Notes under the pieces: generated by a model
What the model was told of the DNA's origin: nothing
Databases searched by the model: none
Seen by the model: only the letters and a program-made list of their open reading frames with translations
Shown: in pieces, positions 15,017 to 62,421 of the stretch
How the letters are laid out: the number at the start of each line of letters is the position of its first letter
How positions within the stretch are numbered: position 1 is the first letter of the stretch
Program-made: the position numbers and the translations under genes
Assembly (NCBI GenBank): GCA_964481885.1
Contig: CAYZUS010000002.1
Span: 40,837-104,836, forward strand
Source: an uncultured Actinomycetota bacterium
GTDB taxonomy: Bacteria; Actinomycetota; Humimicrobiia; Humimicrobiales; Humimicrobiaceae
Direction of reading: 5' to 3'
DNA length: 64,000 nt

Positions 15017-15019
15017 AAA

Positions 15020-32660: not shown

Positions 32661-32857
32661 AGTTTATTATTTATCCCTTATTTTAAGCTTTACTTAATGT
32701 ACCGGTTCCCTTATACAGAGTTTAAAAGCATATGGTAAATTTTATCTCTCTTCAATATTCTTACTGTTTATATTATCGGAATTATCTTTTTTGCTTTAAA
32801 ATGCCGGATAAAACCTCTGAATCCGGCCTGGCAGAGCAATTATAAATGCGCATAACC

Positions 32858-35348: not shown

Positions 35349-35543
35349 TATTTTTTATCCTCCAATAGTATTATTCCGCTTGTGAGGATCTGTTTCTGTG
35401 TAATGTATGCTGGCTCTTTTTACCCCTCCTGCCGGGGCAGCCACCATTAGCACAGAAACAAAAACCTCATGTAATCTTTTTACAGTAAGTTCAGTATTTT
35501 TACTGTTATATATATATTTATAAATAGTAATAAAAATACAGAA

Positions 35544-36659: not shown

Positions 36660-36763
36660 TTTTTACCTCTTTTTTAATATTAAATATTATATTGTTTAAT
36701 ATTTTTAATACTTCCAGGTCACCCTGGACTTCAAATGTAATTTTCTAAAAAAATTTCATTTTT

Positions 36764-37927
36764 CTATTTTGAAACCTCTATCTGTATTTTTATCTGCTGA
36801 CCGGGATTTGTCTTTAACAGCCTTATTGCTTCTTCAGTCTTTTCAAGAGGGTATGTCCCCGTTATAAGCGGTGCAACTTTAACGAGCCCTTCCTCTATTG
36901 AACGAATGGCGCCAGGCCATGCAAGAGGAGCGAGCCATGCAGAACGGATTTCCTTGTCCATTGTATGAAAACTTAAGGCAGGAATCTTAAAGACATCGTC
37001 CCCATTGGGAAGCCCAAAGTGTACTATAACGGCACAGTTACCGACAATTTCCACTGCCTGTTCAAAGGCTGCATTTGAGCTTGTCGGGACTATTGCCCTG
37101 TCGGCAAGCCTGCCCCTGGTGAGCTCGCTTATGGTTTTCTTTAAATCCGGGGTATAGTATTTGCTCGTTTTTTCCACAGTATTAAAAATATAATCGGCTC
37201 CCACTTTTTTACCCTGCTCAAGTCTCCAGTCATCATTGGTTGCCCCCATCAAAGCAACTTTTGCTGCCCCGAGAGATTTGATCATCTGTATCATCATCAT
37301 TCCCATTGCACCTGGGCCAAAAACTGCAACAAAATCAGCTATTTTGATACCCAGTTTTTTGACTCCGTTTAGGGCGCATGCAAGCGGTTCTGTAAATGCC
37401 CCGGCAGAATAACTCATATCGTCAGAAATTTTAAAAAGACCTGTGTACCTTGAAACGCAATACTCTGCAAAGCCCCCGTTTACGGTTACTCCCGGGACAT
37501 TTAAATTTGCACACAAATGTGTCTGGCCCTCAGCACACGCATAGCATGCATTGCAATTCTGCACAGGATTTACAACAACCCTGTCACCTGGTTTAAACAG
37601 GCCAAGCATTTCCGGGACACTTCCAACTTTTACAACTTCACCTGTAAATTCATGCCCCAGAACAATAGGGCCCTTGCCGTTTGCTGTCCCTACAGGAGAC
37701 AACCCATAGTAGTAAGAAATATCTGAACCGCAGATACCAACACTTTTAACTTTTACAAGCACATCTATTGGAGATATCTCAGGAATGGCAATATCCTCCA
37801 TTTTCATTTTTTCAGCCTCATAAAAAACCTGGGCCTTCATTGTACCTTTCAATTCAGCCTCCTTTAAGCATAATTTTGATATTAATTTTGATATTTCTAA
37901 TTCACTGATTTGACTTTTCTGGTTCAA
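36764..37927 (-). CDS. zinc-dependent alcohol/polyol dehydrogenase (MDR family; sorbitol-dehydrogenase-like)
   Basis: GICGSDISYY...GHEFTGEV...GPGAMG Rossmann motif. 387 aa. Confidence 0.8.
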   Translation of the reverse strand: MNQKSQISELEISKLISKLCLKEAELKGTMKAQVFYEAEKMKMEDIAIPEISPIDVLVKVKSVGICGSDISYYYGLSPVGTANGKGPIVLGHEFTGEVVKVGSVPEMLGLFKPGDRVVVNPVQNCNACYACAEGQTHLCANLNVPGVTVNGGFAEYCVSRYTGLFKISDDMSYSAGAFTEPLACALNGVKKLGIKIADFVAVFGPGAMGMMMIQMIKSLGAAKVALMGATNDDWRLEQGKKVGADYIFNTVEKTSKYYTPDLKKTISELTRGRLADRAIVPTSSNAAFEQAVEIVGNCAVIVHFGLPNGDDVFKIPALSFHTMDKEIRSAWLAPLAWPGAIRSIEEGLVKVAPLITGTYPLEKTEEAIRLLKTNPGQQIKIQIEVSK

Positions 37928-38007
37928 TTGTAAAAATCACTCACAATATAAATTAAATCAGGAAATCATCCAATTAGAAATTTGAATAACTGGTTTATTT
38001 ATTATGA

Positions 38008-38895
38008 CTATTGTCCATATTTTTTTATAAGATCATCCAAAATGACCTTGCATCCGGCAGTAGCCTCCAGTGCTTTCGGCCAGAAACAAAGATCTATCGC
38101 CCACCATTCATCTTTATAACCCGCATCCAGAATCGCAGGCATAATTTCGTCAAAGTCAAGCAGACCGGTGCCAAGAGGAGCGTGAGTGCTTGTCTCGTCT
38201 CCATGAAGGGTTCCGTCAGAATCAATTAAATGTATGTGGCCTATTTTCCCGGTCAGCATATGCGCAAACTGCACAACTCCTTTAGGCAAAATCTCTTTAC
38301 TGCCAAGGTGCCTGGAACCCAGCACTGCGCTCATATAGGCATGGCATGAATCAAATAATATTGAAAAATTAGGATGATCAACAATATATGCCATCCTGGT
38401 TACTTCGCTTGGCTTGTTAAATAAAAAGCCCGGTTCGAATTCCCAGATAAGCTTTACGCCTTCTTTTGCACAGACATCCGCTGCCTTGTTCCACACAGAG
38501 GCCACCTTTGAAAAACAGGTTTCATAATCCATTCCTCCCGGTACAGCAGTCGGCCCATCTACTGAATCCACACGTAATTTTGGAATTTTCATATCAACAC
38601 AGATTGCGAGATTCTCCTTTACTGCTTTAATATAGTCATCCTGGCTTGATGTTGCAGGTGATGGAAACGGTGCTGCAAGCCCTGAAATTCCAAGCTTGTA
38701 CTTGTCTAACATTTTCTTGACTTCCAGTCTTTTTTCCTTTGTGTTAGCCTCAAGATGTGGAGGAAAAGCTGCCATTTCAATGCCATCAAATCCAAGCTCG
38801 ACCAGTTTTATTAAAACTTCTTCAAGAGGAATAGGCGCTTCAGAGTATCCGCCCCAAATATATGCCCACCCGCCTATTGATGTCTTTTTTGCCAT
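38008..38895 (-). CDS. sugar phosphate isomerase/epimerase (xylose-isomerase-like TIM barrel)
   Basis: GFDGIEM....WEFEP...HLIDSDG pattern. 295 aa. Confidence 0.7.
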   Translation of the reverse strand: MAKKTSIGGWAYIWGGYSEAPIPLEEVLIKLVELGFDGIEMAAFPPHLEANTKEKRLEVKKMLDKYKLGISGLAAPFPSPATSSQDDYIKAVKENLAICVDMKIPKLRVDSVDGPTAVPGGMDYETCFSKVASVWNKAADVCAKEGVKLIWEFEPGFLFNKPSEVTRMAYIVDHPNFSILFDSCHAYMSAVLGSRHLGSKEILPKGVVQFAHMLTGKIGHIHLIDSDGTLHGDETSTHAPLGTGLLDFDEIMPAILDAGYKDEWWAIDLCFWPKALEATAGCKVILDDLIKKYGQ

Positions 38896-39132
38896 TTTAT
38901 TCTCCTTTATTGTTAAATTTATAATGCATCACCTTTAATAATATTGCTTTAACTCGAAAGCCGATTACTTACCCCGGTAATCAATTCTTCAACCTGAGTG
39001 CCTGTTCTGCTGCATCCATTGTTCCCATAACAATGTTTCTTTTTTAGGAACAATGGCTCTTCTCTTCCTGACACGCGGGAAACAGATTTTTAATTATTCT
39101 CCACTGCTCTTAAGTTAAAAAATCATTTCCCT

Positions 39133-40329
39133 TTATTTCCCATAATGCTTTATTTTTGGAGCATCCATATTAATATCCGGCCCAAAGAATTTAATGATTA
39201 CAAGATCAGCCTGGCCATCATTTTTAACTGTAATGGGTTTGACTGCTCTGTCATGAGAAACAAGAAGCTCATCAAACTCGAAGTTCTTGCCTTCTATTTT
39301 GTGGCCGTCAAAAGTTCCTTTTCCCCTCCAGACAAGGATGTTAAAAACACCTTTTTCAGTAAAAGTGAAGCTTTCGCCGGGTTTTACTCTGAGGCGCTTC
39401 CCTGAGAATTTGGTTGTATTATAATAAATCCAGTGTTCTACTCCGCCTGCCTGCTTTGACTCTTCAACCAGAACATTGGGCAGATGGTGATTTTCATAAA
39501 AATAAGGATCGCCGTTTACGGGCCAGTCGAGCTGGTCAATTATTGCTCTTTCGCCTTTATTTTCCCTGTCTTCTTTGCAGACATCCTTATAAAGCAGTTC
39601 TTTTGAGATTATTTTCCCTGCATTTAAAGCCTGAAGCATTGAAAAAACATCAGAATCTTCCTGAAGCTCTATGGTAAGAGCAGTCCCCGGAGCATGAAGC
39701 ACTCCTGAAGGAAGGAAGAAACCTTCACCCGGAACATTAAGGTAAGCTCTTGCATGCTGCAAAATAAGGTCATCCTTCCATTCAACCAGGTACGGAAGCA
39801 GTATGTCATATTTCTTTTCATCAACAATATAAGGGTGCACTCCAAAAAATGTTTCAGGGTGCGGACCCAAATCTACATCTTCAGGAAAATAGTATGCTTC
39901 ATCTTTGGAATTTGCTCCAACCAGCTTTGCATCCTTCTCTCTCTGGTGTATATGGTAAGGGATCCTGGCACCGAAATCATAAATTTTTGCAAGTCTTCCG
40001 AGCCCTGAATGCGACTTTGCATACTGGGTACCCATAACAAGTTCTCCTGCAGCTGCTACAGCATCCCGCAGGCTTAATTCCTGGTCGCCGCTGATGTTTA
40101 AATAACTTAATCCCTCATCCTCAGGACCTATTGTATTAGATGCTTTTGTTACGGAAGCCAGCCATCGTTCACAAATAAACCCCCTGTCGCCGGCATCATA
40201 TTCTTTTTCCGTAAGCCCAAGTCTTCGTCCCGGCGGAAGAAAATCCCTTGCAACAAACGCAGGTTTTAACTTAAGAACTCCGCCGCCATCTTCCAGTGCC
40301 TTTTTTACAATCTCGTGGATGTCAGTCAT
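39133..40329 (-). CDS. cupin-type sugar isomerase, class I phosphomannose-isomerase (ManA)-like
   Basis: AKIYDFGARIPYHIHQREKD resembles the ManA motif ...LSIQVHPNK. A second His-containing region (ENHHLP) follows. 398 aa. Moderate to low confidence. Confidence 0.45.
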   Translation of the reverse strand: MTDIHEIVKKALEDGGGVLKLKPAFVARDFLPPGRRLGLTEKEYDAGDRGFICERWLASVTKASNTIGPEDEGLSYLNISGDQELSLRDAVAAAGELVMGTQYAKSHSGLGRLAKIYDFGARIPYHIHQREKDAKLVGANSKDEAYYFPEDVDLGPHPETFFGVHPYIVDEKKYDILLPYLVEWKDDLILQHARAYLNVPGEGFFLPSGVLHAPGTALTIELQEDSDVFSMLQALNAGKIISKELLYKDVCKEDRENKGERAIIDQLDWPVNGDPYFYENHHLPNVLVEESKQAGGVEHWIYYNTTKFSGKRLRVKPGESFTFTEKGVFNILVWRGKGTFDGHKIEGKNFEFDELLVSHDRAVKPITVKNDGQADLVIIKFFGPDINMDAPKIKHYGK

Positions 40330-40372
40330 TTTTACCTCCTGTAATTTACAAATATTTGTAATAATAATTAAT

Positions 40373-41224
40373 TTAACTGAAAAGGCCTTTAAGGTATTTT
40401 AAACCTTTCTCGGCCAGTACAAAATCACTGGTTTCGGTCTGTCTCCAGATGGAAGCAGCTTTTGCAATCACTTTATTTTCCGGGGTAAAGGATTCCATAA
40501 CCACCCATTTGTCATAATTGATCCTTCTGAGTGCATCGGCTATTGGCTTCCAGTGAACCTGCCCGGTTCCAGCGGCTCCCCTGTCGTTTTCGCTGGCGTG
40601 AAACAAATATAATAAATCCCCGGCATCCAGGACTGCCATTGCTGAGTTCTTCTCTTCTATGGCCATATGAAAAGAGTCAAGATGAACCTTTAACATTTTA
40701 CTTCCAACGTCTTTAACCAGCTTTATGGCATCACTGCAAATATTAATAAAATCAGTTTCGAAACGGTTCAAAGGCTCTACAGCTATAAATATTCCATACT
40801 TTTCGGCCCACTCACAAGCCTTGCCCAGATTTTGTACAACCGTATCCCACTGAACTTTTCTTTCGCTTTGCTCCACCATACTGGCACGCCCAACGGAAGA
40901 GTAGACCGGACCGGCAAAAACATTGCAGTCAAGTTCACTGCAGGCTTCAAGCGCATCTTTTATATATGAGAGCCCTCCTTCAATATATTCCTTGTTAGGG
41001 CCCCTTATGTCCCTGTTTTCTCCAAAAAGTCCGCAAACTGAAGAGCATACAAGGCCATTGTCTTTAAATGTCTTAAGTGTTTTTTTGTAATCAAAATCTC
41101 CTTTACTTCCAAAGCCGATTTCAACACCGTCAAAACCCATTTCTTTGAATTTTGGCGTCAGACTTTTTACATGCTCGTCTGAGTAAGCACCTGTCCATAA
41201 TAAGGTATTTATCCCGAATTTCAT
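40373..41224 (-). CDS. sugar phosphate isomerase/epimerase (xylose-isomerase-like TIM barrel)
   Basis: GFDGVEIG...AVEPLNRFE...HLDSFHM. 283 aa. Confidence 0.75.
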   Translation of the reverse strand: MKFGINTLLWTGAYSDEHVKSLTPKFKEMGFDGVEIGFGSKGDFDYKKTLKTFKDNGLVCSSVCGLFGENRDIRGPNKEYIEGGLSYIKDALEACSELDCNVFAGPVYSSVGRASMVEQSERKVQWDTVVQNLGKACEWAEKYGIFIAVEPLNRFETDFINICSDAIKLVKDVGSKMLKVHLDSFHMAIEEKNSAMAVLDAGDLLYLFHASENDRGAAGTGQVHWKPIADALRRINYDKWVVMESFTPENKVIAKAASIWRQTETSDFVLAEKGLKYLKGLFS

Positions 41225-41268: not shown

Positions 41269-42486
41269 TTATTCGAATATGCACAACTCCTTTTTGCCAT
41301 TTTCAGCTGATTTAAGAATTGCGTCACAGATTACTGCATTTCTGTATCCATCCTCAAACGTTGCGACGTAAGGTTCAAGGGGTGAATTGTTTACTACTGC
41401 ATTTACCATATTTAAAGCAGTATGCACAAAAGTGTTTTCCCATCCTATAATGTGACCATGCGGCCACCAGTAAGAGTAATATGGATGATGCGACTCAGAA
41501 ACATTAATACAGTGGAATCCCTGTGTTTCAATGGGCTTTTCATCCCTCCAGAAAACATTAAGATTATTTAAATTCTCAAGATCCCACCATATACTGCCTT
41601 TTTCCCCATTTATTTCAATGATATTCTGGTTCTTTCTGCCTGCTGCAAACCTTGATGCTTCAATTGTGCCGATTGCGCCATTTTCAAATTCAACGGCTGC
41701 AGCAATGGCATCATCCACATCGACTTCCTCATTTTTTTTAGTATCGGGATTAAACCTTTCCTTTATAAAGGTCTGGCTCACAGCCGAAACAGCCTTGAAT
41801 TCCCCGCATAAAAATCTTCCCAAATCTATAATATGGGCCCCCAAATCTCCAAGAGCGCCACTGCCGCATACATCTTTTTTTAATCTCCATATCATCGGAA
41901 ATGCCGGATCTATTATCCATTCCTGCAGATACCTTGCCCTGAAATGAAATATTCTTCCCAGTTTTCCTTCAGCTATAAGGTTTTTTGCCAATGCAATTGC
42001 CGGAACCATTCGGTAGTTATAATTGCAGATATTTTTGACATTGTATTTTTTGACAGCATCCCTCATGGTTTTTGCTTCGGCGGCATTTCTTGCAAGAGGT
42101 TTTTCACATACAATATTCTTTCCGGCTTTTGCTGCTGCAATGGAAGTTTCTGCATGCATGTTATTTGGCGTACAGCTGTCAACTATCGAAATCCTGTCAT
42201 CTTCAATAACTTCTTTCCAGTTTGTCGTATGCGACTCAAATCCATATCTCCTGGCTGCCTCAGCAACCTCATTTTCCGGAATCCCGCATATTTTAACAAG
42301 TTTTGGAATTGCAGCCGGGGGCCAGAAAATATAAGGCATCTGCTTCCAGCCGTTTGAATGAGCCTTGCCCATAAAAGAGTGCCCTATCATTCCAATTCCT
42401 ATTTCCGGAATATTTTCAGCTGCCATTTTTTCACTGGTCATAGCAACAAAACCTACTTTTTTTTCTTCTGCCATAATCCACCTCAC
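41269..42486 (-). CDS. Gfo/Idh/MocA family oxidoreductase
   Basis: IGIGMIGHSFMGKAH Rossmann motif and CEKPLA. 405 aa. It is a paralog of 46705-47904. Confidence 0.8.
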   Translation of the reverse strand: MRWIMAEEKKVGFVAMTSEKMAAENIPEIGIGMIGHSFMGKAHSNGWKQMPYIFWPPAAIPKLVKICGIPENEVAEAARRYGFESHTTNWKEVIEDDRISIVDSCTPNNMHAETSIAAAKAGKNIVCEKPLARNAAEAKTMRDAVKKYNVKNICNYNYRMVPAIALAKNLIAEGKLGRIFHFRARYLQEWIIDPAFPMIWRLKKDVCGSGALGDLGAHIIDLGRFLCGEFKAVSAVSQTFIKERFNPDTKKNEEVDVDDAIAAAVEFENGAIGTIEASRFAAGRKNQNIIEINGEKGSIWWDLENLNNLNVFWRDEKPIETQGFHCINVSESHHPYYSYWWPHGHIIGWENTFVHTALNMVNAVVNNSPLEPYVATFEDGYRNAVICDAILKSAENGKKELCIFE

Positions 42487-42548: not shown

Positions 42549-43802
42549 TTATTCCTTTTCCTGTTCGACATATTCCGGTTCGCTTCTTATTGCTTCATTG
42601 TTTGAGCTGCTTCTGCCTACTCTGTCAAACAGAAATATAACCGCCAGTATTATTATAGCAACAATCGCCATCAATATTGATGAAAATGATATTGACAACT
42701 GCATGCTGATTTTTGATGAGAACTTTGTTATTACCGGTGCCAAAGCAAGCCCAAGGTTGGAAGCCAGAAATAGAAATGTGGAAAGAATGCCCCTGCCTTT
42801 TTCATAAAGAGTGCTGCCGGTGGAAATAAGCATTGGAAACAATGCAGAATATCCAAGGCCGGCAATTGAAATTAAAATATAAACAAGATATTTATTATAA
42901 AAAAATGAAAATACAAGCATTGATATTACTGCCAAAATCGAAATAACCAGCATTATTTTTGTGGATTTTATTCTCCCGGCTATAACAAGGACAATTAACC
43001 TTCCAATTACTACAAACAGCCAGAATAAATTTAGGGCAAGACTGGCAGGCTGGACCAAAAAATTCCTTGCCAGTCCTAAAAATGTAGGGGTCCACGTTGC
43101 AACTATGGTTTCAGAGCTGCAATAAAAACCAACTGCCAAAAACACCAGGATAAAAATCATGTTTTTTGTTTTATCTGCAAAAACTTCCTTCAGCGGCAAC
43201 CTTGCTTCATTTTGGACTGCAGCGCTTTCGTGTTTTCTTCCCAAAATACTGATATACAGGATAATATTTAAAGATATCAAAAATATTATTGTGTAATAAA
43301 TAAATCTCCAGTTAAAACCCGCACTTATTATTAAAGAAGAAATAAAGGGAGCGATAAAAGCGCCTACAGGGTAAAATGTTAAAAATATTGTAATTATTCT
43401 GTCTTTGTTTCTCACTTTGCTTGCCAGTATATATTGGTTTGCCTGCATCCATATAACCCCAAATATATAACCGGAAAGAAGGTATAATATCCAGAATAAA
43501 ATCAGGTTGGTACTGAAACCAATGATTACAGCAATCGGAATAAGCATAAGATATCCCGCTATAATCACCTGTATTTTTTTAAATTTTCTGTTATAAACAA
43601 CAGATGTAAGCTGGCCAAGAGCGGCGCCTATTGTAAAAGATGTAAATATAAAACCCAGGTTTGCCACCAAAATGCCGGTCGTTTTGCTAATCTCTATTAA
43701 AATCGGACTTGCGATATTAAAGAAGATTGAAAAAATAAATACCGATAAAAAGTTTGGTATTTCTGCCACATAATTGGCAAACCTGTCTTTTTCATCAACC
43801 AT
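42549..43802 (-). CDS. MFS transporter
   Basis: 417 aa with ~12 transmembrane helices. Confidence 0.8.
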   Translation of the reverse strand: MVDEKDRFANYVAEIPNFLSVFIFSIFFNIASPILIEISKTTGILVANLGFIFTSFTIGAALGQLTSVVYNRKFKKIQVIIAGYLMLIPIAVIIGFSTNLILFWILYLLSGYIFGVIWMQANQYILASKVRNKDRIITIFLTFYPVGAFIAPFISSLIISAGFNWRFIYYTIIFLISLNIILYISILGRKHESAAVQNEARLPLKEVFADKTKNMIFILVFLAVGFYCSSETIVATWTPTFLGLARNFLVQPASLALNLFWLFVVIGRLIVLVIAGRIKSTKIMLVISILAVISMLVFSFFYNKYLVYILISIAGLGYSALFPMLISTGSTLYEKGRGILSTFLFLASNLGLALAPVITKFSSKISMQLSISFSSILMAIVAIIILAVIFLFDRVGRSSSNNEAIRSEPEYVEQEKE

Positions 43803-43980: not shown

Positions 43981-45078
43981 TTATCTGCACCCTATTTCCT
44001 TTAGGGCCATATCAGCCATAATCATATTGCCGGTTGGAGTCATTCTGGGAACCTCGCACCCTGCTGCTATAAAGGTGTTGCTGTTTCCTTCATTAACACA
44101 GGAAAACACTGCCCTTCTTATATCTTCAGCATCTCCCTGAAGCATCACGCTGACAGGATCAAAATTGCCGCATGCACTGCATTTCCCTTTGAACACTGCA
44201 TTTGCTTCTTTAAAATCAACCATCCAGTCAATATCAACAATATCTGCGCCTGTGAGTGGTAAATAATTTAAAATTGAAGAAATATTGCCGCAAATATGAA
44301 GTTTCGCTTTGGCACCCTTATCATGTATTGCCTTTACAATTCTTTGCTCGCATGGAAGTACAAAATTTCTGTAAGCAGTGGGGCTTATCAGGGAAGCTAC
44401 GGCATCGCCTATGCCTATAAAATCAGCGCCTGCATCTATTTGCTCTTCAGAAAACAGGATGGCCTGCCTTGTGCATATTTCAAGCAAATCTTTTATAAAA
44501 TCGGGCCTGTCAAAAATATCAATCATTATTTTGCTTACTCCCATAAGATCAGCTGATTCTGCAAAAGCTCCCTCCACCCAGCCAAGAATAGGATATTTTT
44601 GTCCGACTTCTTTCCTGAACAATTTAATTGCCTCAATCCTGTCATTTGCTCTTTCAGAATTTATTGCATGTTTTATTTTTAGTTTATCGATGTCAGAATA
44701 ATCTTTTATAAAGAAATCACTGCATTTTGGCACATCATCATCCGGAAAGATTATTCTGGATCCAAAACCCTGCGCCTCCCTGTATGGATCAGATATTGCG
44801 CTAACCATATCAATGCCAAATTGCTCACAACAGGCAATATTTCCTTCAACAAGATACCTGTAGTCAGTAACATACTTTTTATAAGGGACTTTTATCAAAT
44901 TTGCAGCAAATGTCATAACTATATTTAAGTTCGGTATTTTATCTACCTCTTCACCTTTAAGTCTTTTAAAAACACGTTCTTTAGGAGTCATTTCTTTGCT
45001 GCTGCCTCTGTTTTCTTTCCTGTTGCCGCTGTTGTAAGGGCTGTTGTTTTTTTCGCTGCCGATGATGCTGTTTTTCAT
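43981..45078 (-). CDS. uroporphyrinogen decarboxylase (URO-D)/MtaA-like family protein
   Basis: N-terminus TPKERVFKRLKGEEVDKIP (compare MtaA/UroD N-termini). 365 aa. Confidence 0.7.
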   Translation of the reverse strand: MKNSIIGSEKNNSPYNSGNRKENRGSSKEMTPKERVFKRLKGEEVDKIPNLNIVMTFAANLIKVPYKKYVTDYRYLVEGNIACCEQFGIDMVSAISDPYREAQGFGSRIIFPDDDVPKCSDFFIKDYSDIDKLKIKHAINSERANDRIEAIKLFRKEVGQKYPILGWVEGAFAESADLMGVSKIMIDIFDRPDFIKDLLEICTRQAILFSEEQIDAGADFIGIGDAVASLISPTAYRNFVLPCEQRIVKAIHDKGAKAKLHICGNISSILNYLPLTGADIVDIDWMVDFKEANAVFKGKCSACGNFDPVSVMLQGDAEDIRRAVFSCVNEGNSNTFIAAGCEVPRMTPTGNMIMADMALKEIGCR

Positions 45079-45154
45079 AATTTTTTATGTATAATTTTTT
45101 ATAAATATTTTATTGCTCCCGGCAAAATAGTTATCAGATAGTTCTCTGTCAGAT

Positions 45155-46462
45155 TCACGAGACTCTTTCCGATTCCTCCCTTGCAATTTTTGTCCATCTG
45201 ATTACATTATCAGGATTATTTCCTATCGTATGATTATCCTTCATGATAATTTCAATAATGCATCCCTTTGCGGCATCCAGAATATTTCTTATCCTCTTTC
45301 GAGCAACTTCTTCATCCATGACAGGCGCAGCAAGGTCGGTAGGCTTTATTTTTAATGAGTACACATAATTATCCTGAAGGTTTTCCCTCATTTGCTCAAA
45401 ATTTGCCCAGCTTGAAACTGAGACCCTTCTTAAATTTGGAATCTTTTTTACCATGTTCCATCTTTTTTCAACCGGTTCACAGCACCCATAGCAATTTAGC
45501 CCAAACAGTTTTAAAACGGGCAGCTGATACTGGAAAATAAATTCTTCAAACATTGCCGGTGATATACCGGTTGTTTCCTGGCTTTCTGAAAACCCCCACA
45601 TATCAGCAGTTTTAACCTCACTGGCAGAAAATCCATCCTGTGGCAGATCTTCTGTAAATCCAAATCCTCCAGATCCTACATAGCTGTCATTATTTAAAGA
45701 AAGCAGCCTGCTTTCTTCCAGAAATTTTAATTCTGCAAGAGTTCCTTCCATCAGAAACTTCATTATTCTGTGAATTAACTCTGGTTTATCCATCATGTCC
45801 ACCATCAGGTTCTGAAGACCCCGAAGGAAAGCAAGGCTTGTTGTGAGCCCAAGGCTCCACCACCAGACACCCTTTAGACGGACTTCAAGAATTCCGTCAA
45901 ATATCTCATTTGCAAGCTCAACTGTTTCATTTGTTGTCTTATAATCAATTTCAATTTTTGGAAATCTCAGCTTGTCGGCATCGGCTTCACTTTTTAAAGG
46001 AGCATCCCAGATATAGGAACCTCCGCCACCGCCATGAAAGCTTGTTTGTAATCCCCATCCGCTGTCAGAATACGTATATCCTATGTTAAAGTAAGGGAGC
46101 ATAACTTTATCGTCAAGCATTCTGGTTCCCCAGAATATTTCCTTTTTTAATATAACTTCCCACTTTTTGGCAAGGCTGCCCTCGCACTCTATAAGATTGC
46201 CGGATATTATTTCATTCCATCCATTTTCAGGGTCACAAAATATTAAAGGCTCTTTTAATTTGAGGTCATTATGAAGAATCCATTTGCGCTTTTTTTCTTT
46301 CTCAATATCGCGGTCGGACAGGTCCCTTACTTCCAGCGCCAGTTTTTTCAAAATACTTTTATCTTTTTCTGAAATAAAAATCTCATGCTTCCTGCCCGCT
46401 GCAAAAGCAGGAGTACTCCCGTAGTCTGACACATCCCATAAGCCTGTTGCATTGTTAACCAT
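45155..46462 (-). CDS. hypothetical protein, possibly a divergent URO-D-like fold
   Basis: 435 aa. The C-terminal pattern ...GCIIEI...N...PDNV...ARE resembles URO-D family C-termini. Weak evidence. Confidence 0.3.
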   Translation of the reverse strand: MVNNATGLWDVSDYGSTPAFAAGRKHEIFISEKDKSILKKLALEVRDLSDRDIEKEKKRKWILHNDLKLKEPLIFCDPENGWNEIISGNLIECEGSLAKKWEVILKKEIFWGTRMLDDKVMLPYFNIGYTYSDSGWGLQTSFHGGGGGSYIWDAPLKSEADADKLRFPKIEIDYKTTNETVELANEIFDGILEVRLKGVWWWSLGLTTSLAFLRGLQNLMVDMMDKPELIHRIMKFLMEGTLAELKFLEESRLLSLNNDSYVGSGGFGFTEDLPQDGFSASEVKTADMWGFSESQETTGISPAMFEEFIFQYQLPVLKLFGLNCYGCCEPVEKRWNMVKKIPNLRRVSVSSWANFEQMRENLQDNYVYSLKIKPTDLAAPVMDEEVARKRIRNILDAAKGCIIEIIMKDNHTIGNNPDNVIRWTKIAREESERVS

Positions 46463-46704: not shown

Positions 46705-47904
46705 TTATATTTCAGGTTTTACCTCAAGCTTTACTCCGCTTTCTGAAGACTCCCTGATTTTATCCATAATCAGCTGGATAACATAACCGTCATAAAAAGT
46801 GGCGCCATAAGGCTCTACACTTTTATTATTTACTATACAATCCAATAAATGCGCGATCTCATTTACATGAGCATTCTCCCACCCTATATTGTGTCCCGGC
46901 GGCCACAGCAGGGACGCAAACGGATCTTTGGGGTCCGTAACGGAAACTTTTGTAAATCCTGAAATATCGGCTGAGGGAGAGTCTTTTAACCAGACATAAA
47001 GATGATTTAAGTCCTCCAGGTCCCAATATATGCTGCCCTTGGAGCCATTTATTTCCCAGGTGTGCTGATTTAATCTTCCTGCTGAAATCCCTGATGATTC
47101 GATTGAACCTACTGCTCCATTTTCAAATTCCACAAGACTGAAATTGGTTTCATCGGCGCTTATGATTTCGGTACTGTTATTTCTGTTTAATCTCGTAGTA
47201 TTAAAGGTTTTTTGAATTCCTGATACGGTCTTTATTTCTGAAACAAGAAATCTTGCAAGATCGATTATGTGGCATCCGATTCCCAGATTGACTCCTGATT
47301 TTGTTCCTGATGCATACCAGACATCTTCAATTGGATTTCCGGGATTGGCTCCTACAGACTGCAGGTATCTTCCCCTGAACTCATATATTTCCCCCAAAAC
47401 ACCATTTTTAATCATTTCTTTTGCCCGCCTTACTGCAGGGATAAATCTGTAGTTGTGCCCGAGCATATGTTTGACCTTTGCTTTTTTTGCGGCCGTATAC
47501 ATCCTTTTAGCGTCATCAACAGTCATTGCAAGAGGTTTTTCACACAATACATTTTTGCCTGCTTCGACAGCCGCAATGCAAGGCTCACAGTGCATGTCAT
47601 CAGGAGTGCAATTATCTATCAGCAGAATCCTTGGATCCTTAACCAGAAGATTCCAATCGTTGTAATAGCCCTGATAACCGTACCTGTACGCCGCCTCCTG
47701 CGTCTGGGACTCATTTTCCAAAAGCCCACAGACGGCCACAAGCTCCGGTATTGCAACAGGGGGCCAGGAAAAGTAGCTTAGTTTTTTATAGGCATTGGTA
47801 TGCGCCTTTCCCATAAATCCATACCCTATCAGTCCTATTCCGATTTTGGGAAAATTATATTTTTCTGTGTCTGTTTCTTTAAAACCCTGCATATTTATAG
47901 CCAT
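46705..47904 (-). CDS. Gfo/Idh/MocA family oxidoreductase
   Basis: IGIGLIGYGFMGKAH and CEKPLA. 399 aa. Confidence 0.8.
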   Translation of the reverse strand: MAINMQGFKETDTEKYNFPKIGIGLIGYGFMGKAHTNAYKKLSYFSWPPVAIPELVAVCGLLENESQTQEAAYRYGYQGYYNDWNLLVKDPRILLIDNCTPDDMHCEPCIAAVEAGKNVLCEKPLAMTVDDAKRMYTAAKKAKVKHMLGHNYRFIPAVRRAKEMIKNGVLGEIYEFRGRYLQSVGANPGNPIEDVWYASGTKSGVNLGIGCHIIDLARFLVSEIKTVSGIQKTFNTTRLNRNNSTEIISADETNFSLVEFENGAVGSIESSGISAGRLNQHTWEINGSKGSIYWDLEDLNHLYVWLKDSPSADISGFTKVSVTDPKDPFASLLWPPGHNIGWENAHVNEIAHLLDCIVNNKSVEPYGATFYDGYVIQLIMDKIRESSESGVKLEVKPEI

Positions 47905-48064: not shown

Positions 48065-48916
48065 TTATTTTCTTAAAAGATTAAGAAAATCTATACTTTC
48101 AGCCACTGCCTTATCTACTTCTCCTTTATATTTCGGGTGAAGATTATCAATTTCAACAGCCAGAAATCCATTATATCCTGCTATTTCAAGTTCTGCAGTA
48201 ATGGCTTCAATATTAATTATCCCCTGCCCTACCGGGGTGCAGGAGAAAAACATCCAGTCCTTGGGATCCCATCCATAAATTGCCTCTACATCTTTAAGAT
48301 GAGTAGCAAATATATGTTTGGAAAGCAGCTTTGCAGATTTTACCGGATCATCTCCATTTCTCAGGCAATTTCCTGTGTCAAAAGTAAGCCCAAAATACGG
48401 AGAGTCGACATTTGTAATTATTGTCAATATCTCATCAGTCGTAAAATCAAAATGGTTTTCTATTGCAATTCTTATTCCGCTGTCCTGGGCAATACTGACT
48501 GCTTCTTTCATCATTTTTGTAATTCGATTAATTTGTGGAAGGTGAGGCTCATTTCTAAATGAAAGGCTGGAACCAACCATTCTCAGAAGATCAGTTCCCA
48601 GTAATTTGCATGTTTTAAACTGCTCGTACATTTCTTTCAGCGCCGCTACATTATTTCCGCCTTCAAGCCCGTTAGGATGGCCCCATGCAACAACTACTTT
48701 AAAGTTGTTTTTATCTATTATCTCCCTTATTTTCTTTAAATAGCTCTCGTCAAAGGAGGGGATAAAACATGTTTCAAGGGACACACCGTCGACTTTCAGT
48801 TCAGCGGCACGGCTTAAAAAATCCTCAAGGCTCATTTTTACTTTTGGTGCCTCTTCTGTCGGATATACTTCCCCGAAATATTTATGGTAGCAATAACTGT
48901 CAATGCCAATTTTCAT
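48065..48916 (-). CDS. sugar phosphate isomerase/epimerase (xylose-isomerase-like TIM barrel)
   Basis: VDGVSLE...AIENHFDF...FDTGN...HLKD. 283 aa. Confidence 0.75.
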   Translation of the reverse strand: MKIGIDSYCYHKYFGEVYPTEEAPKVKMSLEDFLSRAAELKVDGVSLETCFIPSFDESYLKKIREIIDKNNFKVVVAWGHPNGLEGGNNVAALKEMYEQFKTCKLLGTDLLRMVGSSLSFRNEPHLPQINRITKMMKEAVSIAQDSGIRIAIENHFDFTTDEILTIITNVDSPYFGLTFDTGNCLRNGDDPVKSAKLLSKHIFATHLKDVEAIYGWDPKDWMFFSCTPVGQGIINIEAITAELEIAGYNGFLAVEIDNLHPKYKGEVDKAVAESIDFLNLLRK

Positions 48917-49175
48917 GTTATCCCCCCCTTTTTTTTAAAAAAAATAACTTATTGTTTTTGCTTAAAAAAAATCTTCACAAAACAGTTATTTGCAATGTTC
49001 TCTGTCAGGTTGCTTATTAATATTTAAATATATCCAGTTCGTATAAAACCACCGGAATTTTACAGAAATTGCAAACAAATCAATCATGAAACTTTCTAAT
49101 TGAAGCCTCACCTGATTGGCCGTCCGCCTAAACTGCTGCTCATATTTTTAAACAATTTACTTCTTTTCAGGTAAC

Positions 49176-50018
49176 CTAAATACCGCAGGATTTCAGGAAC
49201 TGAACACTTTTCTTAAGTATTTCAGGATCACCGACAATTTCCAATGTTGAAGCTTCAATATTTGTACCTTTAAGAGCATCACAAATACCTTTGATATCAA
49301 TAATACCGTCTCCCATTGCTATTGTTGAAAACCCTGCACCAAATTGTTTGGTTCTCTTTGGCAGCCAGTCTTCACCCAAATCTTTCCAATGAACATGATG
49401 AATTTTGTCTTTAAAAGTTTTAGCCATTTCAACAGGGTCAGCACCGCCCAGCCAGCTGTTTCCAGTGTCAAGATTTAAACCAATGGCTGGATTGTTATCA
49501 AGAAGATCAAACACTTTTTTCAGTCCGTCGATTGTATCTGTAATTGGCCCATGATTTTCCAGAAGAATTCTTACTCCATAGTCTGAAGCCATTTTTACCG
49601 GTTCACAAAGCTTTTCAGCAATCGTAAAGGTTCTTTGTTCAATTGTAGTTTTACGACCCCATTCCGTAGTGGCTTCACCTTCTGTTGTGATAACTTCTTT
49701 TACTCCAATGGCAGCTGCCATTTTAATTGCTTTCATAATTTCTGCAGTTCCGAATCTGCTGGGTTTGGATGGATCAAGAAGGTTTGCATGGGCACATATT
49801 GTTGAAATTTTTATACCATATTTATCAAATAGTCTCTTAACATCAAAAGGGTTGTCGTCAAGGCTTACTGTCGGGCTGAAACCTGCTGTTCCAAGCATGC
49901 TTCCACCTGCATTTGTATCAGTAACGTCAGCATATAAAAATCCCATTTCCTTTGCAGTTTTTAATTGCTCTTCAACACTTGCAAAAGGCTTGATTAAAAG
50001 AAATAATCCTATGTTCAT
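49176..50018 (-). CDS. sugar phosphate isomerase/epimerase (xylose-isomerase-like TIM barrel)
   Basis: LLENHGP...LNLDTGN...HVHWKD. 280 aa. Confidence 0.75.
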   Translation of the reverse strand: MNIGLFLLIKPFASVEEQLKTAKEMGFLYADVTDTNAGGSMLGTAGFSPTVSLDDNPFDVKRLFDKYGIKISTICAHANLLDPSKPSRFGTAEIMKAIKMAAAIGVKEVITTEGEATTEWGRKTTIEQRTFTIAEKLCEPVKMASDYGVRILLENHGPITDTIDGLKKVFDLLDNNPAIGLNLDTGNSWLGGADPVEMAKTFKDKIHHVHWKDLGEDWLPKRTKQFGAGFSTIAMGDGIIDIKGICDALKGTNIEASTLEIVGDPEILKKSVQFLKSCGI

Positions 50019-50335: not shown

Positions 50336-51523
50336 TTATTTTGCCAGATAAGCAGTTAGTTTCTCATCAAATGATTTGAAGAGATCAGCATTTTCTGTGT
50401 AGCTTGTTTCGTAGAATGCAAGATCCCACTGGAATTTATTTTCAGCTCGTGCCTTCAAATAATCCTCGATTACCCAAGGAATAGCCTGATCCAAATTTTC
50501 TTTGGTCATTGCTGCCCAAGGTTTGATCTGCAGATAAGTGAGAGCTTCTTCGCCTCTAAGATAACGGGAGATCTGCTGAATACAAAGATCAGCATTTAAT
50601 GATGGAGGATTTGGAGATGTAGCTGACATCTTGCCATCTTTAATTAACTGCCAACCTTCTTCTTTACCATTGCAGGAAACCATTATCTTGCCTGTTACGT
50701 TTTGTTCTTCAAATACCTGCTGAACACCGAAAGCTGTTTCTTCATTGCAAGCAAAAATTACATCAAATTCCCTGCCTGATGAAATAAGATCCTGTGTTAT
50801 AGGTATTGCAAGAGTTCTCTGCCATTCTGAGCTTTTGGTTAAAAATGCTGGTTCCAGGCCTGCTTCTTCAAGAGCCATATCAAAACCAACGATTTCGCCT
50901 TCAGCTGGGCCCTGTCCAAGAAATCCGGGGATATTTACACTCTTGGCATTAGGAACATTTTCTGCAACCCATTTGCCAACCTGATAACCCATGATTACAA
51001 AGTTATCAGTTACGTGTCCCTGAAGTTCAGTTCCTGCTGTAAGCTCAGGTTTTCCAGCGATAAAGAATATTGGCACCTTTGCATCGTTAGCAGCCTTGAT
51101 TGTAGTAGCGCTTCCTGCTGCACCTGCAGTTATAACTGCAATTGCGTCTACGCCCTTAGCGATAAGATCCTGAACGTTTGCAAGTTCTTTTTCAGGTTTG
51201 TAGTCAGAGTTAAGCTCTGTAACTATCATACCCTGTGATTCTGCCAAAGCCTTAAATGCTTTTCCAAATGCTGCATAATAATCATCAGGACCTGCATTTA
51301 CAAAGCCAAGTTGTTTTCCTGTAAGATCCATCTGAGCGGCTTCTGTTTCAACAGCAGCAGCAGTAGTTTCAGCAGCAGCAGCTGTGGTTTCAGCAGCAGC
51401 AGTTGTAGCAGCAGCTGTAGTAGCAGCAGCTGTAGTTTCAGCAACAGTTGCAGTTTTACAACCAATGCCTATTGATCCTAAAATAGCTATACAGATTACG
51501 ACTATAAGTAGCTTTTTTAACAT
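50336..51523 (-). CDS. sugar ABC transporter substrate-binding lipoprotein (periplasmic-binding-protein type I fold)
   Basis: Signal peptide plus Cys, then a Thr/Ala-rich linker (TAAETTAAATTAAA...), then a ribose/xylose-type PBP domain. Confidence 0.75.
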   Translation of the reverse strand: MLKKLLIVVICIAILGSIGIGCKTATVAETTAAATTAAATTAAAETTAAAAETTAAAVETEAAQMDLTGKQLGFVNAGPDDYYAAFGKAFKALAESQGMIVTELNSDYKPEKELANVQDLIAKGVDAIAVITAGAAGSATTIKAANDAKVPIFFIAGKPELTAGTELQGHVTDNFVIMGYQVGKWVAENVPNAKSVNIPGFLGQGPAEGEIVGFDMALEEAGLEPAFLTKSSEWQRTLAIPITQDLISSGREFDVIFACNEETAFGVQQVFEEQNVTGKIMVSCNGKEEGWQLIKDGKMSATSPNPPSLNADLCIQQISRYLRGEEALTYLQIKPWAAMTKENLDQAIPWVIEDYLKARAENKFQWDLAFYETSYTENADLFKSFDEKLTAYLAK

Positions 51524-51600
51524 CTTTTCCTCCTTTTATCTTTCCTTCTTTTGTATTTACGCTAGCAGAACATTTGCGCATCAAAATTATGATGCAATTT

Positions 51601-52650
51601 TTATTTTACAGATCTTTCTTCATCAGCTGTCAGCATGACAGAAGAGGACCTGGTACTACTTATGTAAGTAAGAGACACAGCAAACACTATCAGTAACCCT
51701 CTGGTTACATATTGCCAATGGGGATTGACGCCGATAATATTAAGTGCATTTGAAATAATGCCCAGCATCAGCACTCCGATAAACGTACCCCAGGCGTTCC
51801 CTTTACCACCGACAAGTGCGGTTCCACCGACAACAACAGCTGCAATGACTTCTATCTCCTTTCCTTCACCCATCAGCGGGTTTCCTGTGCCAAGCCTTGA
51901 GAGCTGCGCCATGGTTGCTATTGCAACGAAAATTCCGTTGATGCCGTACAGCATGAGCTTAAAGTTTTTTACATTAATACCTGCAAGATATGCTGCACTT
52001 TCATTGCCACCCACAGCATATACTCTGCGTCCAAACTTGGTATATTTCAAAATAAACCATACTATTACTGTAAGAATAATGAATAATATTACAGGAAATG
52101 CTATTTTCAAAACCGGCTGATTTAGAGGGATATTAAGATAAGTCTTGCCGAGGAAAGTAAATTTCCCCTCGATTGTTATCTCTCTGCCGTTTGTTATAAG
52201 ATATGTAAAACCCTTGTATATGCTTAAAAACCCCAGGGAAACTATAAAAGCTTCAAGTTTTGTTCGCGAGATTATAAGTCCCATTACAAGCTGCAACGCT
52301 ACCGCAACTACAAGCCCGAGCCCGGCGGCTCCCCATTCATTCCATCCCAGTGTTTTAATCAGAAAAGCCATGCCTGTGCCTATAAAACACATCATCTGCC
52401 CTACTGAAAGGTCTATGCCTCCTGAGATCATAATAAGTGTCATACTTAATGCAAGCATGCCTGTTATTGATACCTGCAAAAAGACATTTGCAATATTCAT
52501 GGGTTTAATGAACGCAACTTTGGAAATATCCATGCTGCGCACTGCAAAAAACTCCACAATAATGACGATTGCAATAATGAAAAGCAGCACTAAAAAAATG
52601 GATAGATTTTCGTTCTTTGAAAATCTTTTTAACGGATTCTTAGACCTCAT
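51601..52650 (-). CDS. sugar ABC transporter permease (RbsC/XylH-like)
   Basis: 349 aa polytopic membrane protein. Its stop overlaps the ATPase gene by 4 nt. Confidence 0.8.
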   Translation of the reverse strand: MRSKNPLKRFSKNENLSIFLVLLFIIAIVIIVEFFAVRSMDISKVAFIKPMNIANVFLQVSITGMLALSMTLIMISGGIDLSVGQMMCFIGTGMAFLIKTLGWNEWGAAGLGLVVAVALQLVMGLIISRTKLEAFIVSLGFLSIYKGFTYLITNGREITIEGKFTFLGKTYLNIPLNQPVLKIAFPVILFIILTVIVWFILKYTKFGRRVYAVGGNESAAYLAGINVKNFKLMLYGINGIFVAIATMAQLSRLGTGNPLMGEGKEIEVIAAVVVGGTALVGGKGNAWGTFIGVLMLGIISNALNIIGVNPHWQYVTRGLLIVFAVSLTYISSTRSSSVMLTADEERSVK

Positions 52651-62267: not shown

Positions 62268-62338
62268 GAATGGTATTGTACCAAAAAACAGAAATATTTA
62301 AATTAAAAATATTTTAAAAATAAAATTATAGAAAATGC

Positions 62339-62395
62339 TTGACAAGGAATCAGAAATAAACAATAATGAATGAATCGGTTCACTGAATCGGTTCA
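62339..62395 (+). promoter_or_regulatory. sigma-70-like promoter (TTGACA-17-AATAAT) followed by tandem palindromic TGAATCGGTTCA operator half-sites (LacI-family/cre-like TGAAnCGnTTCA)
   Basis: TTGACA at 62339-62344 and AATAAT at 62362-62367. TGAATCGGTTCA lies at 62371-62382 and again at 62384-62395. The region is directly upstream of the LacI gene at 62422 and divergent from the TIM/DUF89 operon. Confidence 0.5.
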
Positions 62396-62421
62396 TTAAC
62401 ATAAAAATATTATAAAACAGG

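Follow-up and report, generated by a model that had tools for sequence, protein, structure and literature searches.

Two neighbouring genes in a sugar-catabolic cluster encode proteins that, judged by their sequences, resemble the URO-D superfamily's methyl-transfer branch, here in an unusual context, and not decarboxylases. They may demethylate a methylated sugar or cyclitol independently of oxygen, the cobamide carrier being encoded elsewhere; we give this reading a probability of roughly 35%. The analysis covered a window of 64 kb, which is the whole stretch of DNA presented above. A preliminary description had placed in it one clear and one divergent URO-D-fold protein (P1 and P2 hereafter), lying between an MFS transporter and a Gfo/Idh/MocA dehydrogenase of a sugar operon, and had proposed that they decarboxylate or isomerise a sugar intermediate. 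Taken as a whole, that interpretation is partly supported: the two open reading frames, their fold and their setting were all recovered, the proposed chemistry was not. The cluster reads as follows from its upstream end.

55663-56502, minus strand: xylose-isomerase-like TIM-barrel protein, upstream of the repressor (synteny kept in relatives L086 and L008)
54255-55286, minus strand: LacI/RbsR-like repressor, head of the cluster
50336-54137, minus strand: ribose-type (CUT2) sugar ABC transporter of three genes, namely
52647-54137, minus strand: ABC ATPase
51601-52650, minus strand: ABC permease
50336-51523, minus strand: ABC binding protein
48065-50018, minus strand: two xylose-isomerase-like TIM-barrel proteins (48065-48916 and 49176-50018)
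46705-47904, minus strand: GfoA, Gfo/Idh/MocA oxidoreductase, 305 bits to the levoglucosan dehydrogenase model, below its cut-off of 650 bits
45155-46462, minus strand: P2, 435 aa, divergent URO-D-fold protein of a family without a model
43981-45078, minus strand: P1, 365 aa, MtaA-like member of the URO-D family, with the zinc-ligand motifs LHICGN and AAGCEVP
42549-43802, minus strand: MFS transporter (MFS_1; TsgA-like, weak)
41269-42486, minus strand: GfoB, Gfo/Idh/MocA oxidoreductase, 395 bits to the levoglucosan dehydrogenase model
33870-41224, minus strand: block of downstream catabolic genes, namely
40373-41224, minus strand: TIM barrel, psicose-epimerase-like
39133-40329, minus strand: conserved protein of no assigned function
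38008-38895, minus strand: TIM barrel
36764-37927, minus strand: Zn-ADH, IolM-like
35544-36659, minus strand: xylose/rhamnose-isomerase-like protein
33870-35348, minus strand: xylulokinase-like FGGY kinase

The top PDB matches of GfoB by sequence were 4h3v and 6a3f, the latter of which we take to be levoglucosan dehydrogenase. For the conserved protein at 39133-40329, an AF2 model made from 17 close homologues reached a pLDDT of 51; the sole lead is a pair of JGI names, "mannose-6-phosphate isomerase class I". No carboxylate-forming enzyme (lactonase, uronate enzyme, aldehyde dehydrogenase) was identified in the cluster, and haem-pathway genes were absent from the 64-kb window.

P1, P2 and the sugar genes share one strand, and P1 and P2 appear to be co-transcribed with the latter. 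The pair is bounded by AT-rich gaps of 242 nt and 178 nt, and no terminator-like site was found on the coding strand of the intergenic gaps around it. Promoter and terminator counts around P1 and P2 equalled the shuffled expectation, and thus support neither the presence nor the absence of internal promoters. In relatives L002 and L082 GfoA runs with its stop into the P2 start, and in L086 the GfoA, P1 and MFS genes overlap, which suggests translational coupling.

The assignment of P1 is clear. It matched PF01208 (URO-D) over residues 31-352 with 208.1 bits (E 2.4e-61), the gathering threshold being 23.9 bits. Its true start is probably M30, at coordinate 44991, because the first 29 residues are missing from most orthologues. 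Methanosarcina mazei MtaA aligned with P1 at 28% identity over 317 positions (E 2e-27), and in this PDB sequence comparison P1 was much nearer to the methylcobamide-dependent MtaA than to any MetE. The His-Cys-Cys zinc ligands of MtaA, singled out for checking in the preliminary description, have counterparts in P1: H261 and C263 (LHICGN) and C341 (AAGCEVP) align with LHICGN and APGC of MtaA, and all three are invariant in the 14 orthologues aligned. P1 thus appears to carry an MtaA-type ligand set, forming a putative metal site. Its scores stayed below the cut-offs of the narrower models, with 167.7 bits against 235.4 for the MtaA/CmuA family (TIGR01463), and 131.5 and 148.1 bits for the MtaA and MtbA equivalogs, whose cut-offs are 400 and 600.

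P1 also failed the HemE equivalog TIGR01464 (81.9 bits, cut-off 302.95). The substrate-binding residues of URO-D, another suggested check, gave a divided answer. At the site of the PVWxMRQAGR motif, which presumably holds the N-terminal substrate-binding arginines of HemE, P1 reads PNLNIVMTFAAN, and the orthologue alignment reads PNLNI(V/I)MTFAA, without arginine. Alignments of P1 to URO-D structures in the PDB begin no earlier than residue 75-134. The aspartate, on the other hand, is kept, D97 (in SDP) being aligned with the FSD aspartate of URO-D. HemE itself is metal-free, whereas P1 has the zinc-ligand cysteines.

P2 is far more divergent. The PF01208 search proposed for both proteins succeeded for P1; P2 gave 15 bits (E 0.013), under the threshold of 23.9. 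In an alignment of 25 P2-like proteins and four of a third URO-D subfamily, U400 (alignment A3), 11 of the 29 members matched PF01208 at E <= 0.1. P2 matched neither TIGR01464, TIGR01463 nor the MtaA and MtbA equivalogs, its sequence returned only noise from the PDB, and neither protein matched the Pfam models MtaB or Meth_synt. P2 is nevertheless a URO-D/MtaA-type (beta/alpha)8 barrel, clearly apart from generic TIM barrels. It belongs to a well-defined family, present in at least 587 species genomes from more than ten phyla, with clear conserved motifs but no Pfam or NCBIfam model. These motifs are CDPENGWNE (76-84), WWW (200-202), SQE (294-296), YGCCE (325-329) and KDNHT (408-412), and invariant Trp, Asp and Glu residues abound in the protein.

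YGCCE stands in P2 in place of the His-Cys-Cys ligands. Among 25 diverse representatives of the family C327 and C328 were invariant, and residue 329 was Glu in 23 and Asp in two. The zinc sites of MetE and MtaB use ligands of this Cys/Cys/Glu type, and a metal site of P2 would lie at C327, C328 and E329. Neither of these two enzymes is matched at the sequence level, and the order and spacing of the ligands differ. For a third ligand, hhalign suggests C401, and strand geometry D409 or H411.

Is the sugar context a peculiarity of this cluster? Co-occurrence in other genomes, which the preliminary description had proposed to examine, showed that it is not a one-off. Association of P1 or P2 with sugar genes also occurs in Actinomycetota, Atribacterota, Spirochaetota, Chloroflexota, Bacteroidales and others. 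Eighty P2 loci were taken from GTDB species genomes; in 39 of them a sugar transporter lay within three genes of P2, and in 47 a recognised sugar gene. A URO-D-superfamily paralogue was found directly beside P2 in 17 of 81 loci. Ribose-type ABC transporters were the commonest neighbours of P2, and minimal modules made of an ABC transporter and P2 were common. In Bacteroidales P2 has a GH2 enzyme on one side and a sugar MFS transporter on the other, surrounded by GH3, GH88, polysaccharide lyase, alpha-galactosidase and sulfatase genes. For P1 orthologues the repeated neighbours were xylose-isomerase-like genes together with FGGY or PfkB kinase genes, a gene content that fits the release of an ordinary aldose.

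The two proteins do not always travel together. Among close relatives of the cluster, L086, L097, L101 and L104 have P1 without P2, and L082 has P2 without P1. They are therefore no obligate pair, which weakens a split of the two into methyltransferases MT1 and MT2. Some lone homologues of P2 or P1 (L001, L089) have no sugar genes around them.

The window contains no corrinoid partner, as had been reported. None of its ORFs of at least 150 aa matched PF02310 or PF02607, and a six-frame scan with an HMM built from three corrinoid proteins gave nothing at E <= 10. No RamA-type activase, H4folate methyltransferase or classical methyltransferase I gene was identified in the 64 kb, and an Rfam scan of the window revealed no cobalamin or other riboswitch. 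The same three-protein HMM did pick up a distant aminomutase B12 domain at another locus.

A few relatives do have such a protein. A corrinoid protein was present within 10 kb of P2 in three of 80 loci, clearly linked in only two, and near a P1 orthologue in five of 78 loci. In L073 and L049 it carries PF02310, PF02607 and the DxHxxG motif and adjoins P2 inside a sugar operon, in the order ABC, URO-D (420 aa), TIM, Zn-ADH, TIM, SDR, Gfo, corrinoid protein, P2. The P1 loci with a nearby corrinoid protein include L126, L138, L142 and L149, their P1 being of the same orthogroup as that of the window; in L126 the order is P1, ABC, XylA-like, FGGY, corrinoid protein, URO-D, GH31. Two further matches were discounted as unrelated systems, one in L012, 8 kb off and next to an MttB gene, and one in L048, an aminomutase B12 domain. 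The corrinoid proteins neighbouring P1 or P2 share just 42-59% identity with each other, which resembles their identity to the MttB-linked protein of L012, so a dedicated corrinoid subfamily was not concluded.

Characterised systems resemble the pair in part. MtaA and MtbA are the methylcobamide:coenzyme M methyltransferases of methanogens (PDB 4ay7). P1 falls below their family cut-off (168 versus 235 bits) and far below both equivalog cut-offs; it has no MtaC or MtaB partner nearby, belongs to a bacterium without known coenzyme M synthesis, nearest to the Humimicrobiales (Actinomycetota), and is set in sugar catabolism and not in methylotrophy. Bacterial three-component O-demethylases consist of a URO-D-family methyltransferase I (OdmB/VdmB), a corrinoid protein, a methyltransferase II and an activase. 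Like P1 and P2, these enzymes and those of the MtaA-like Mlp clusters (PMC10418091) belong to the URO-D superfamily; they are bacterial methyltransferases, often with several paralogues per locus, and the succession of URO-D paralogue, corrinoid protein and URO-D paralogue recurs in L073, L049, L126 and L149. In contrast, the corrinoid protein and activase, usually adjacent in characterised corrinoid methyltransferase systems (PMC10418091), are missing both in the window and in about 95% of the related loci, and the neighbours of P1 and P2 are sugar transporters and sugar enzymes. A type 1 mlp cluster contains two or more Mlps, along with a corrinoid protein and an activase (Ram/RACE), co-directional and within 2 kb (Kountz & Balskus, PMC10418091), whereas in the window P1 is the one Mlp-like protein, a corrinoid protein is absent and an activase was not identified.

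From the fold, the ligand motifs and the recurrent operon context we infer a methyl transfer dependent on a corrinoid, with labour divided between P1 and P2 and a methylated sugar as substrate. P1 and P2 would be paralogues from the zinc-type branch of the URO-D superfamily (MtaA, MtsA, MetE and the bacterial O-demethylases), recruited into sugar catabolism. A methylated monosaccharide or cyclitol would be taken up via the ABC or MFS transporter of the cluster, most likely an O-methyl sugar or O-methyl inositol, possibly an S-methyl sugar. The metal site of P1 or P2 would polarise the methyl-heteroatom bond, and a Co(I) cobamide would receive the methyl group. For this first transfer P2 is the likelier enzyme, since it is more widespread, more often alone and most often beside transporters; the MtaA-like P1 would pass the methyl onward to a zinc-activated thiol acceptor. 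The unmasked sugar would then be handed to the Gfo/Idh/MocA dehydrogenases, TIM-barrel enzymes, isomerases and FGGY kinase. The cobamide carrier may come from a gene outside the window, or free cobamide may serve. As methyl donors, aliphatic methyl ethers are inferior to aryl ones. No precedent for corrinoid-dependent sugar demethylation was found in the literature, and the papers found on Humimicrobia were only surveys. In principle, oxidation and beta-elimination by the levoglucosan-dehydrogenase-like and TIM-barrel enzymes could take off some substituents without a methyltransferase.

Direct, MetE-like transfer is an unlikely variant, in which P2 or P1, or the two together, would shift the methyl from the sugar onto a zinc-bound thiol (homocysteine, sulfide or a low-molecular-weight thiol) without cobamide. 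P1 is far nearer to MtaA (E 2e-27) than to any MetE, and a corrinoid protein sits exactly between URO-D paralogues in a small number of sugar operons. We know of no precedent for direct methyl transfer from an unactivated methyl ether.

It is equally improbable that P1 and P2 work without a cofactor on a sugar acid or keto-sugar supplied by the Gfo/Idh/MocA dehydrogenases, catalysing its decarboxylation, isomerisation or hydration. A C6 keto-acid, for example, could yield a pentulose for the xylulokinase-like kinase, which stands with a xylose-isomerase-like protein at the end of the cluster. The lack of a corrinoid partner in the window, the match of P1 D97 (SDP) to the URO-D aspartate, and the invariant Trp, Asp and Glu residues of P2, frequent in sugar-binding sites, agree with such a role. 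The preliminary description had moved from the missing corrinoid gene to this chemistry, a step that finds no positive support, since P1 lacks the arginine motif (82 bits, HemE cut-off 303) and keeps a putative metal site of the methyltransferase type. Invariant MtaA zinc ligands have no evident use in a decarboxylase, and the invariant vicinal cysteines of P2 are atypical of sugar isomerases or decarboxylases. The cluster, moreover, has no identified carboxylate-forming enzyme, and close relatives of P1 and P2 stand beside corrinoid proteins in sugar operons (L073, L049, L126, L142).

Still less probable is an S-methyl sugar as substrate, 5-methylthioribose or a derivative, demethylated at its thioether in the manner of MtsA before catabolism of the skeleton. 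This chemistry suits a zinc-thiolate product, and ribose-type ABC transporters are the commonest P2 neighbours. Methylthiol methyltransferases are found among the MtaA-family enzymes, and action on methyl-sulfur or methyl-selenium compounds has been proposed for related Mlp clusters (PMC10418091). In L008 and L014, a RuBisCO-like protein is encoded directly downstream of P2. Some RuBisCO-like proteins have a role in methylthio-sugar metabolism. However, the glycoside hydrolases, lyases and sulfatases of the Bacteroidales context and the GH31 enzyme of L126 indicate glycan-derived sugars, and no MtnK-, MtnA- or MtnP-type gene was present in the window or the loci examined. Levoglucosan-dehydrogenase-like enzymes such as those of the cluster presumably work on the C3-OH of a pyranose.

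That P1 and P2 are mere passengers at a permissive GfoA-MFS site, serving some unrelated metabolism of methyl groups or thiols, or acting in regulation or sensing, is just as unlikely: close relatives do carry P2 only, P1 only or both at this position, long AT-rich gaps (242 and 178 nt) flank the pair, and lone homologues exist without sugar genes (L001, L089), but the link to sugar transporters and enzymes repeats over many phyla in varied architectures, the gene overlaps seen in relatives suggest translational coupling to GfoA and the MFS gene, and the gaps have no terminator-like site on the coding strand.

Beyond this cluster, and more tentatively than the demethylation reading itself, P2 may represent a new and very widespread enzyme family that, with P1 and U400, demethylates methylated sugars and cyclitols from plant, algal and microbial glycans without oxygen, mostly with no corrinoid protein of its own and with free cobamide or no cobamide at all. 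Candidate substrates would be 2-O-methyl-xylose, 3-O- or 6-O-methyl-hexoses, 4-O-methyl-glucuronate and pinitol. Should P1, P2 and U400 act otherwise on sugars, theirs would be the first function of the URO-D fold outside both methyl transfer and haem. P2, a small soluble enzyme in a defined operon with a binding protein, offers an experimental handle.

Methylated sugars and methyl-inositols are plentiful in plant, moss and algal biomass. No description of their demethylation by anaerobes was found in the literature, and the sugar demethylases known to us are oxygen-dependent P450s. If the demethylation reading is true, P1 and P2 would be an anaerobic counterpart of these P450s, and methylated sugars an unrecognised methyl source in anoxic sediments, peat and guts. 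A methyltransferase family that mostly has no corrinoid carrier of its own would be new in its mechanism. Many genes annotated as "hypothetical" or "uroporphyrinogen decarboxylase family" in sugar and polysaccharide-utilisation loci would gain a function, and glycan degradation would be tied, in anoxic habitats, to the cycling of C1, methanethiol and methane.

From about 31.6 to 56.5 kb, every gene of the window lies on the minus strand. The sugar cluster found here is listed below in transcription order, with P1 being an MtaA-like URO-D family protein and P2 a divergent URO-D-fold protein.

Genes of the sugar cluster; neighbours of P1 and P2 were identified by Pfam and NCBIfam scans
55663-56502, minus: TIM barrel
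next, minus: LacI/RbsR-like repressor
50336-54137, minus: ribose-type ABC transporter (ATPase, permease, binding protein)
between transporter and GfoA, minus: two xylose-isomerase-like TIM barrels
46705-47904, minus: GfoA, Gfo/Idh/MocA dehydrogenase
45155-46462, minus: P2, 435 aa
43981-45078, minus: P1, 365 aa
between P1 and GfoB, minus: MFS transporter
41269-42486, minus: GfoB, second Gfo/Idh/MocA enzyme
next, minus: psicose-epimerase-like TIM barrel
39133-40329, minus: conserved unknown protein, 398 aa
next, minus: further TIM barrel
next, minus: IolM-like Zn-ADH, then xylose/rhamnose-isomerase-like protein
next, minus: xylulokinase-like FGGY kinase

Both reading frames were recovered exactly where the preliminary description had placed them, and on the coding strand the gaps flanking the pair are free of terminator-like sites. 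GfoB scored 395 bits against the levoglucosan dehydrogenase model, with 4h3v and 6a3f as top PDB sequence matches. The 398-aa protein had no match in Pfam, NCBIfam or PDB; it is 69–89% identical to homologues in Actinomycetota and Spirochaetales MAGs, two JGI records name homologues “mannose-6-phosphate isomerase class I”, and an AF2 model built from 17 homologues had a pLDDT of 51. At the 3' end of the cluster (31677-33796, minus strand), a NAD-dependent epimerase/dehydratase fell below the cut-offs of both the HpnA model (269 bits) and the model for the sterol demethylase SdmB (256 bits), and the neighbouring 312-aa protein had no family or PDB match. The nearest relatives of the cluster, at 82–85% identity, are in Humimicrobiales and other Actinomycetota MAGs.

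Outside the sugar cluster, the window (GC about 38%) carries chromosomal housekeeping DNA, with purine, arginine and folate genes alongside DnaB, L9 and SSB. Another small sugar-related unit (60568-63435) encodes an ARMT1-like damage-control phosphatase, a divergent LacI regulator and a xylose-isomerase-like TIM barrel whose CbiR-like score is weak (37 bits, under the cut-off). Elsewhere are a protein of 875 aa in which DHH/DHHA1 phosphoesterase, CBS and poly(A) polymerase/CCA-adding head domains are fused (21602-24229, minus) and, at 11037-18838 (plus), a 1043-aa PAS-rich GGDEF and HD-domain signalling protein. After the latter come genes for a Germane-domain protein and for two 2-hydroxyacyl-CoA dehydratase-like subunits (HGD-D) with their BcrAD-type activator.

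As judged by its score of 208 bits against PF01208, P1 is unambiguously a member of the URO-D family. It is not HemE by the corresponding model, since it reached 82 bits for a cut-off of 303; against the curated MtaA/CmuA model it scored 168 bits, below the cut-off of 235. Its best solved relative is Methanosarcina mazei MtaA (4ay7; E 1.9e-27), to which it is 28% identical across 317 positions. In MtaA the zinc ligands are supplied by the motifs LHICGN and GC, which align with LHICGN (H261, C263) and AAGCEVP (C341) of P1, and all three residues are invariant among 14 orthologues 57–78% identical to P1, which include Actinomycetota, one Ruminiclostridium and one Halanaerobiales MAG. In P1, D97 aligns with the aspartate of the URO-D motif FSD, and PNLNIVMTFAAN occupies the place of the arginine-rich N-terminal motif of URO-D. 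The first 29 codons of the P1 reading frame are probably untranslated, because orthologues mostly begin at the equivalent of M30 (44991, MTPKERV); no obvious ribosome-binding site was seen at the upstream ATG.

P2 passed no threshold against Pfam, NCBIfam or PDB sequences, its top Pfam match being PF01208 at 15 bits. It is a URO-D/MetE-like superfamily protein outside every modelled family, and is not HemE; the proposed contrast of one clear and one divergent member is borne out, the latter at the level of the fold. The gene is real and strongly conserved. More than 5000 homologues were found in a 90%-clustered database; at 50% clustering there were 2796 representatives with E ≤ 1e-3 (771 with E ≤ 1e-30), and at least 587 matches among GTDB species genomes. 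They occur, among others, in Actinomycetota, Atribacterota, Spirochaetota, Chloroflexota, Planctomycetota, Verrucomicrobiota, Bacteroidales, Clostridia, Halanaerobiales, Acidobacteriota and Armatimonadota. Among 25 diverse representatives, E102, D118, W289, Q295, C327 and C328 are invariant, followed by Y325 and G326 (24 each), E329 (23, Asp in the other two), K371 (23), D409 (22) and C401 (21). The YGCCE motif would be part of a putative Cys/Glu-type metal site as in MetE and MtaB. The remaining ligand may be C401, which hhalign pairs with C341 of P1, or D409 or H411, favoured by their position at a strand end.

No B12-binding domain was present in window reading frames of 150 aa or more, no cobalamin riboswitch was found with Rfam, and a six-frame scan with an HMM built from three corrinoid proteins gave no match. 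This HMM had the sensitivity to pick up an aminomutase B12 domain elsewhere. As P1 scores strongly, P2 is a member at the level of the fold and no standard corrinoid system lies nearby, the observation of a URO-D pair without corrinoid partner stands.

Relatives were surveyed as the best 80 loci per query, with flanks up to 10 kb, simple ORF calling and many short contigs (L numbers denote these loci). For P2, loci came from species genomes, with ORFs called and products clustered; the P1 survey gave 78 non-redundant orthologue loci, all metagenomic. The sugar context is meaningful, and it recurs: at a distance of up to three genes from P2, 47/80 best loci have a recognised sugar gene and 39/80 a sugar transporter. 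The commonest direct neighbour of P2 is another URO-D-superfamily gene (17/81 loci), and in many loci a CUT2 ABC transporter and P2 are the entire module. In Bacteroidales, P2 has a GH2 enzyme on one side and a sugar MFS transporter on the other, amid GH3, GH88, a heparinase II/III-like lyase, alpha-galactosidase, aldose epimerase, sulfatase, and GH123-like and GH38-like proteins. Around P1, xylose-isomerase-like, FGGY, PfkB and ABC genes appear repeatedly; another URO-D paralogue lies within three genes in 18/78 loci, and of the 63 loci in which the gene just upstream of P1 could be seen, 8 have P2 there.

One Humimicrobiales MAG (L002) shares the complete cluster in synteny, and its GfoA stop overlaps the P2 start. 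P1 and P2 are both tied to the sugar pathway and are not an obligate pair, because cluster variants carry either alone: GfoA-P1-MFS with overlapping genes (L086) and TIM-P1-GfoB (L097, L101, L104) occur without P2, and L082 has P2, frameshifted, without P1. In this closest species-genome relative (85% identity; L082:6851-8100), a frameshift or deletion removing residues 263-286 splits P2, perhaps because the gene is a pseudogene or the assembly is faulty. L086 (ERZ25039600 contig_21891, a long-read sample) has many fragmented genes resembling frameshift errors. Another large contig of that sample, from the same or a different genome (contig_30555, L001), is similar in GC content (39% vs 37%) and carries a lone P2 homologue near dnaA.

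A corrinoid protein lies within 10 kb of P1 in 5/78 loci. It directly adjoins P1 in L142; the order is P1, sugar ABC, XylA-like, FGGY, corrinoid protein, URO-D(373), GH31 in L126, and corrinoid protein, URO-D(456), CobW, P1 in L149. In a neighbour-joining tree these P1s belong to the orthogroup of the window P1, in sister subclades. Two Chloroflexota loci (L073, L049) encode a 224–228 aa protein (PF02607 and PF02310, DLHDIG motif) directly adjoining P2, in the order ABC, U420, TIM, Zn-ADH, TIM, SDR, Gfo, corrinoid protein, P2. Matches in L012, adjoining an MttB gene, and L048, an aminomutase, belong to unrelated systems.

A third URO-D subfamily, U400, often accompanies P1/P2 homologues in sugar loci (L073:2834-4096; L049:8585-9850 and 847-2004; L050:7490-8749; L130:4972-6144 and 11978-13270), with no member in the window. 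Its proteins (385–430 aa, 51–95 bits against PF01208, 27–59% identical to one another across phyla) mostly carry an H-S/T-C motif. In L130, U390, P2, P1 and U430 are accompanied by a kinase and two ABC transporters.

In their conserved features, as read from alignments, P1 and P2 match the methyl-transfer branch of the superfamily. The model with the fewest assumptions, to which we give a probability of about 0.35, is that a methylated sugar or cyclitol is imported and demethylated by P1 and P2; the methyl group would travel through a cobamide to a thiol, and the product would be taken up by the route of dehydrogenases, TIM-barrel enzymes, isomerase and kinase. In our view demethylation would account for the conserved metal ligands, for loci with several paralogues, for the corrinoid proteins embedded in some of them, for the minimal modules of transporter and P2, and for the settings of glycan degradation. 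What weakens the model most is that some 95% of loci have no corrinoid protein within 10 kb, whereas known systems keep carrier and activase adjacent (PMC10418091). It is also weakened by loci in which P1 or P2 occurs without the other, and by a literature search that found no precedent. Under this reading P1 would work like MtaA and Mlp (the MtaA-like protein of bacterial clusters), yet it falls outside both by curated score and cluster criteria. A MetE-like, corrinoid-independent methyl transfer by P1 and P2 appears unlikely. A role other than methyl transfer is improbable too, the decarboxylation or isomerisation suggested earlier having gained no positive support. S-methyl sugars such as methylthioribose are a very doubtful substrate, a reading prompted by two Actinomycetota/Humimicrobiaceae loci (L008:9701-10987, L014:1276-2562) with a RuBisCO-like protein (PF00016, about 428 aa) directly downstream of P2, which could point to a phospho-sugar or methylthio-sugar branch. 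That P1 and P2 are passenger genes is highly unlikely.

The superfamily is known, and so is the chemistry that P1 and P2 would probably perform. Their sugar-catabolism context, mostly without a carrier protein, is so far uncharacterised, and the widespread P2 subfamily has no family model.
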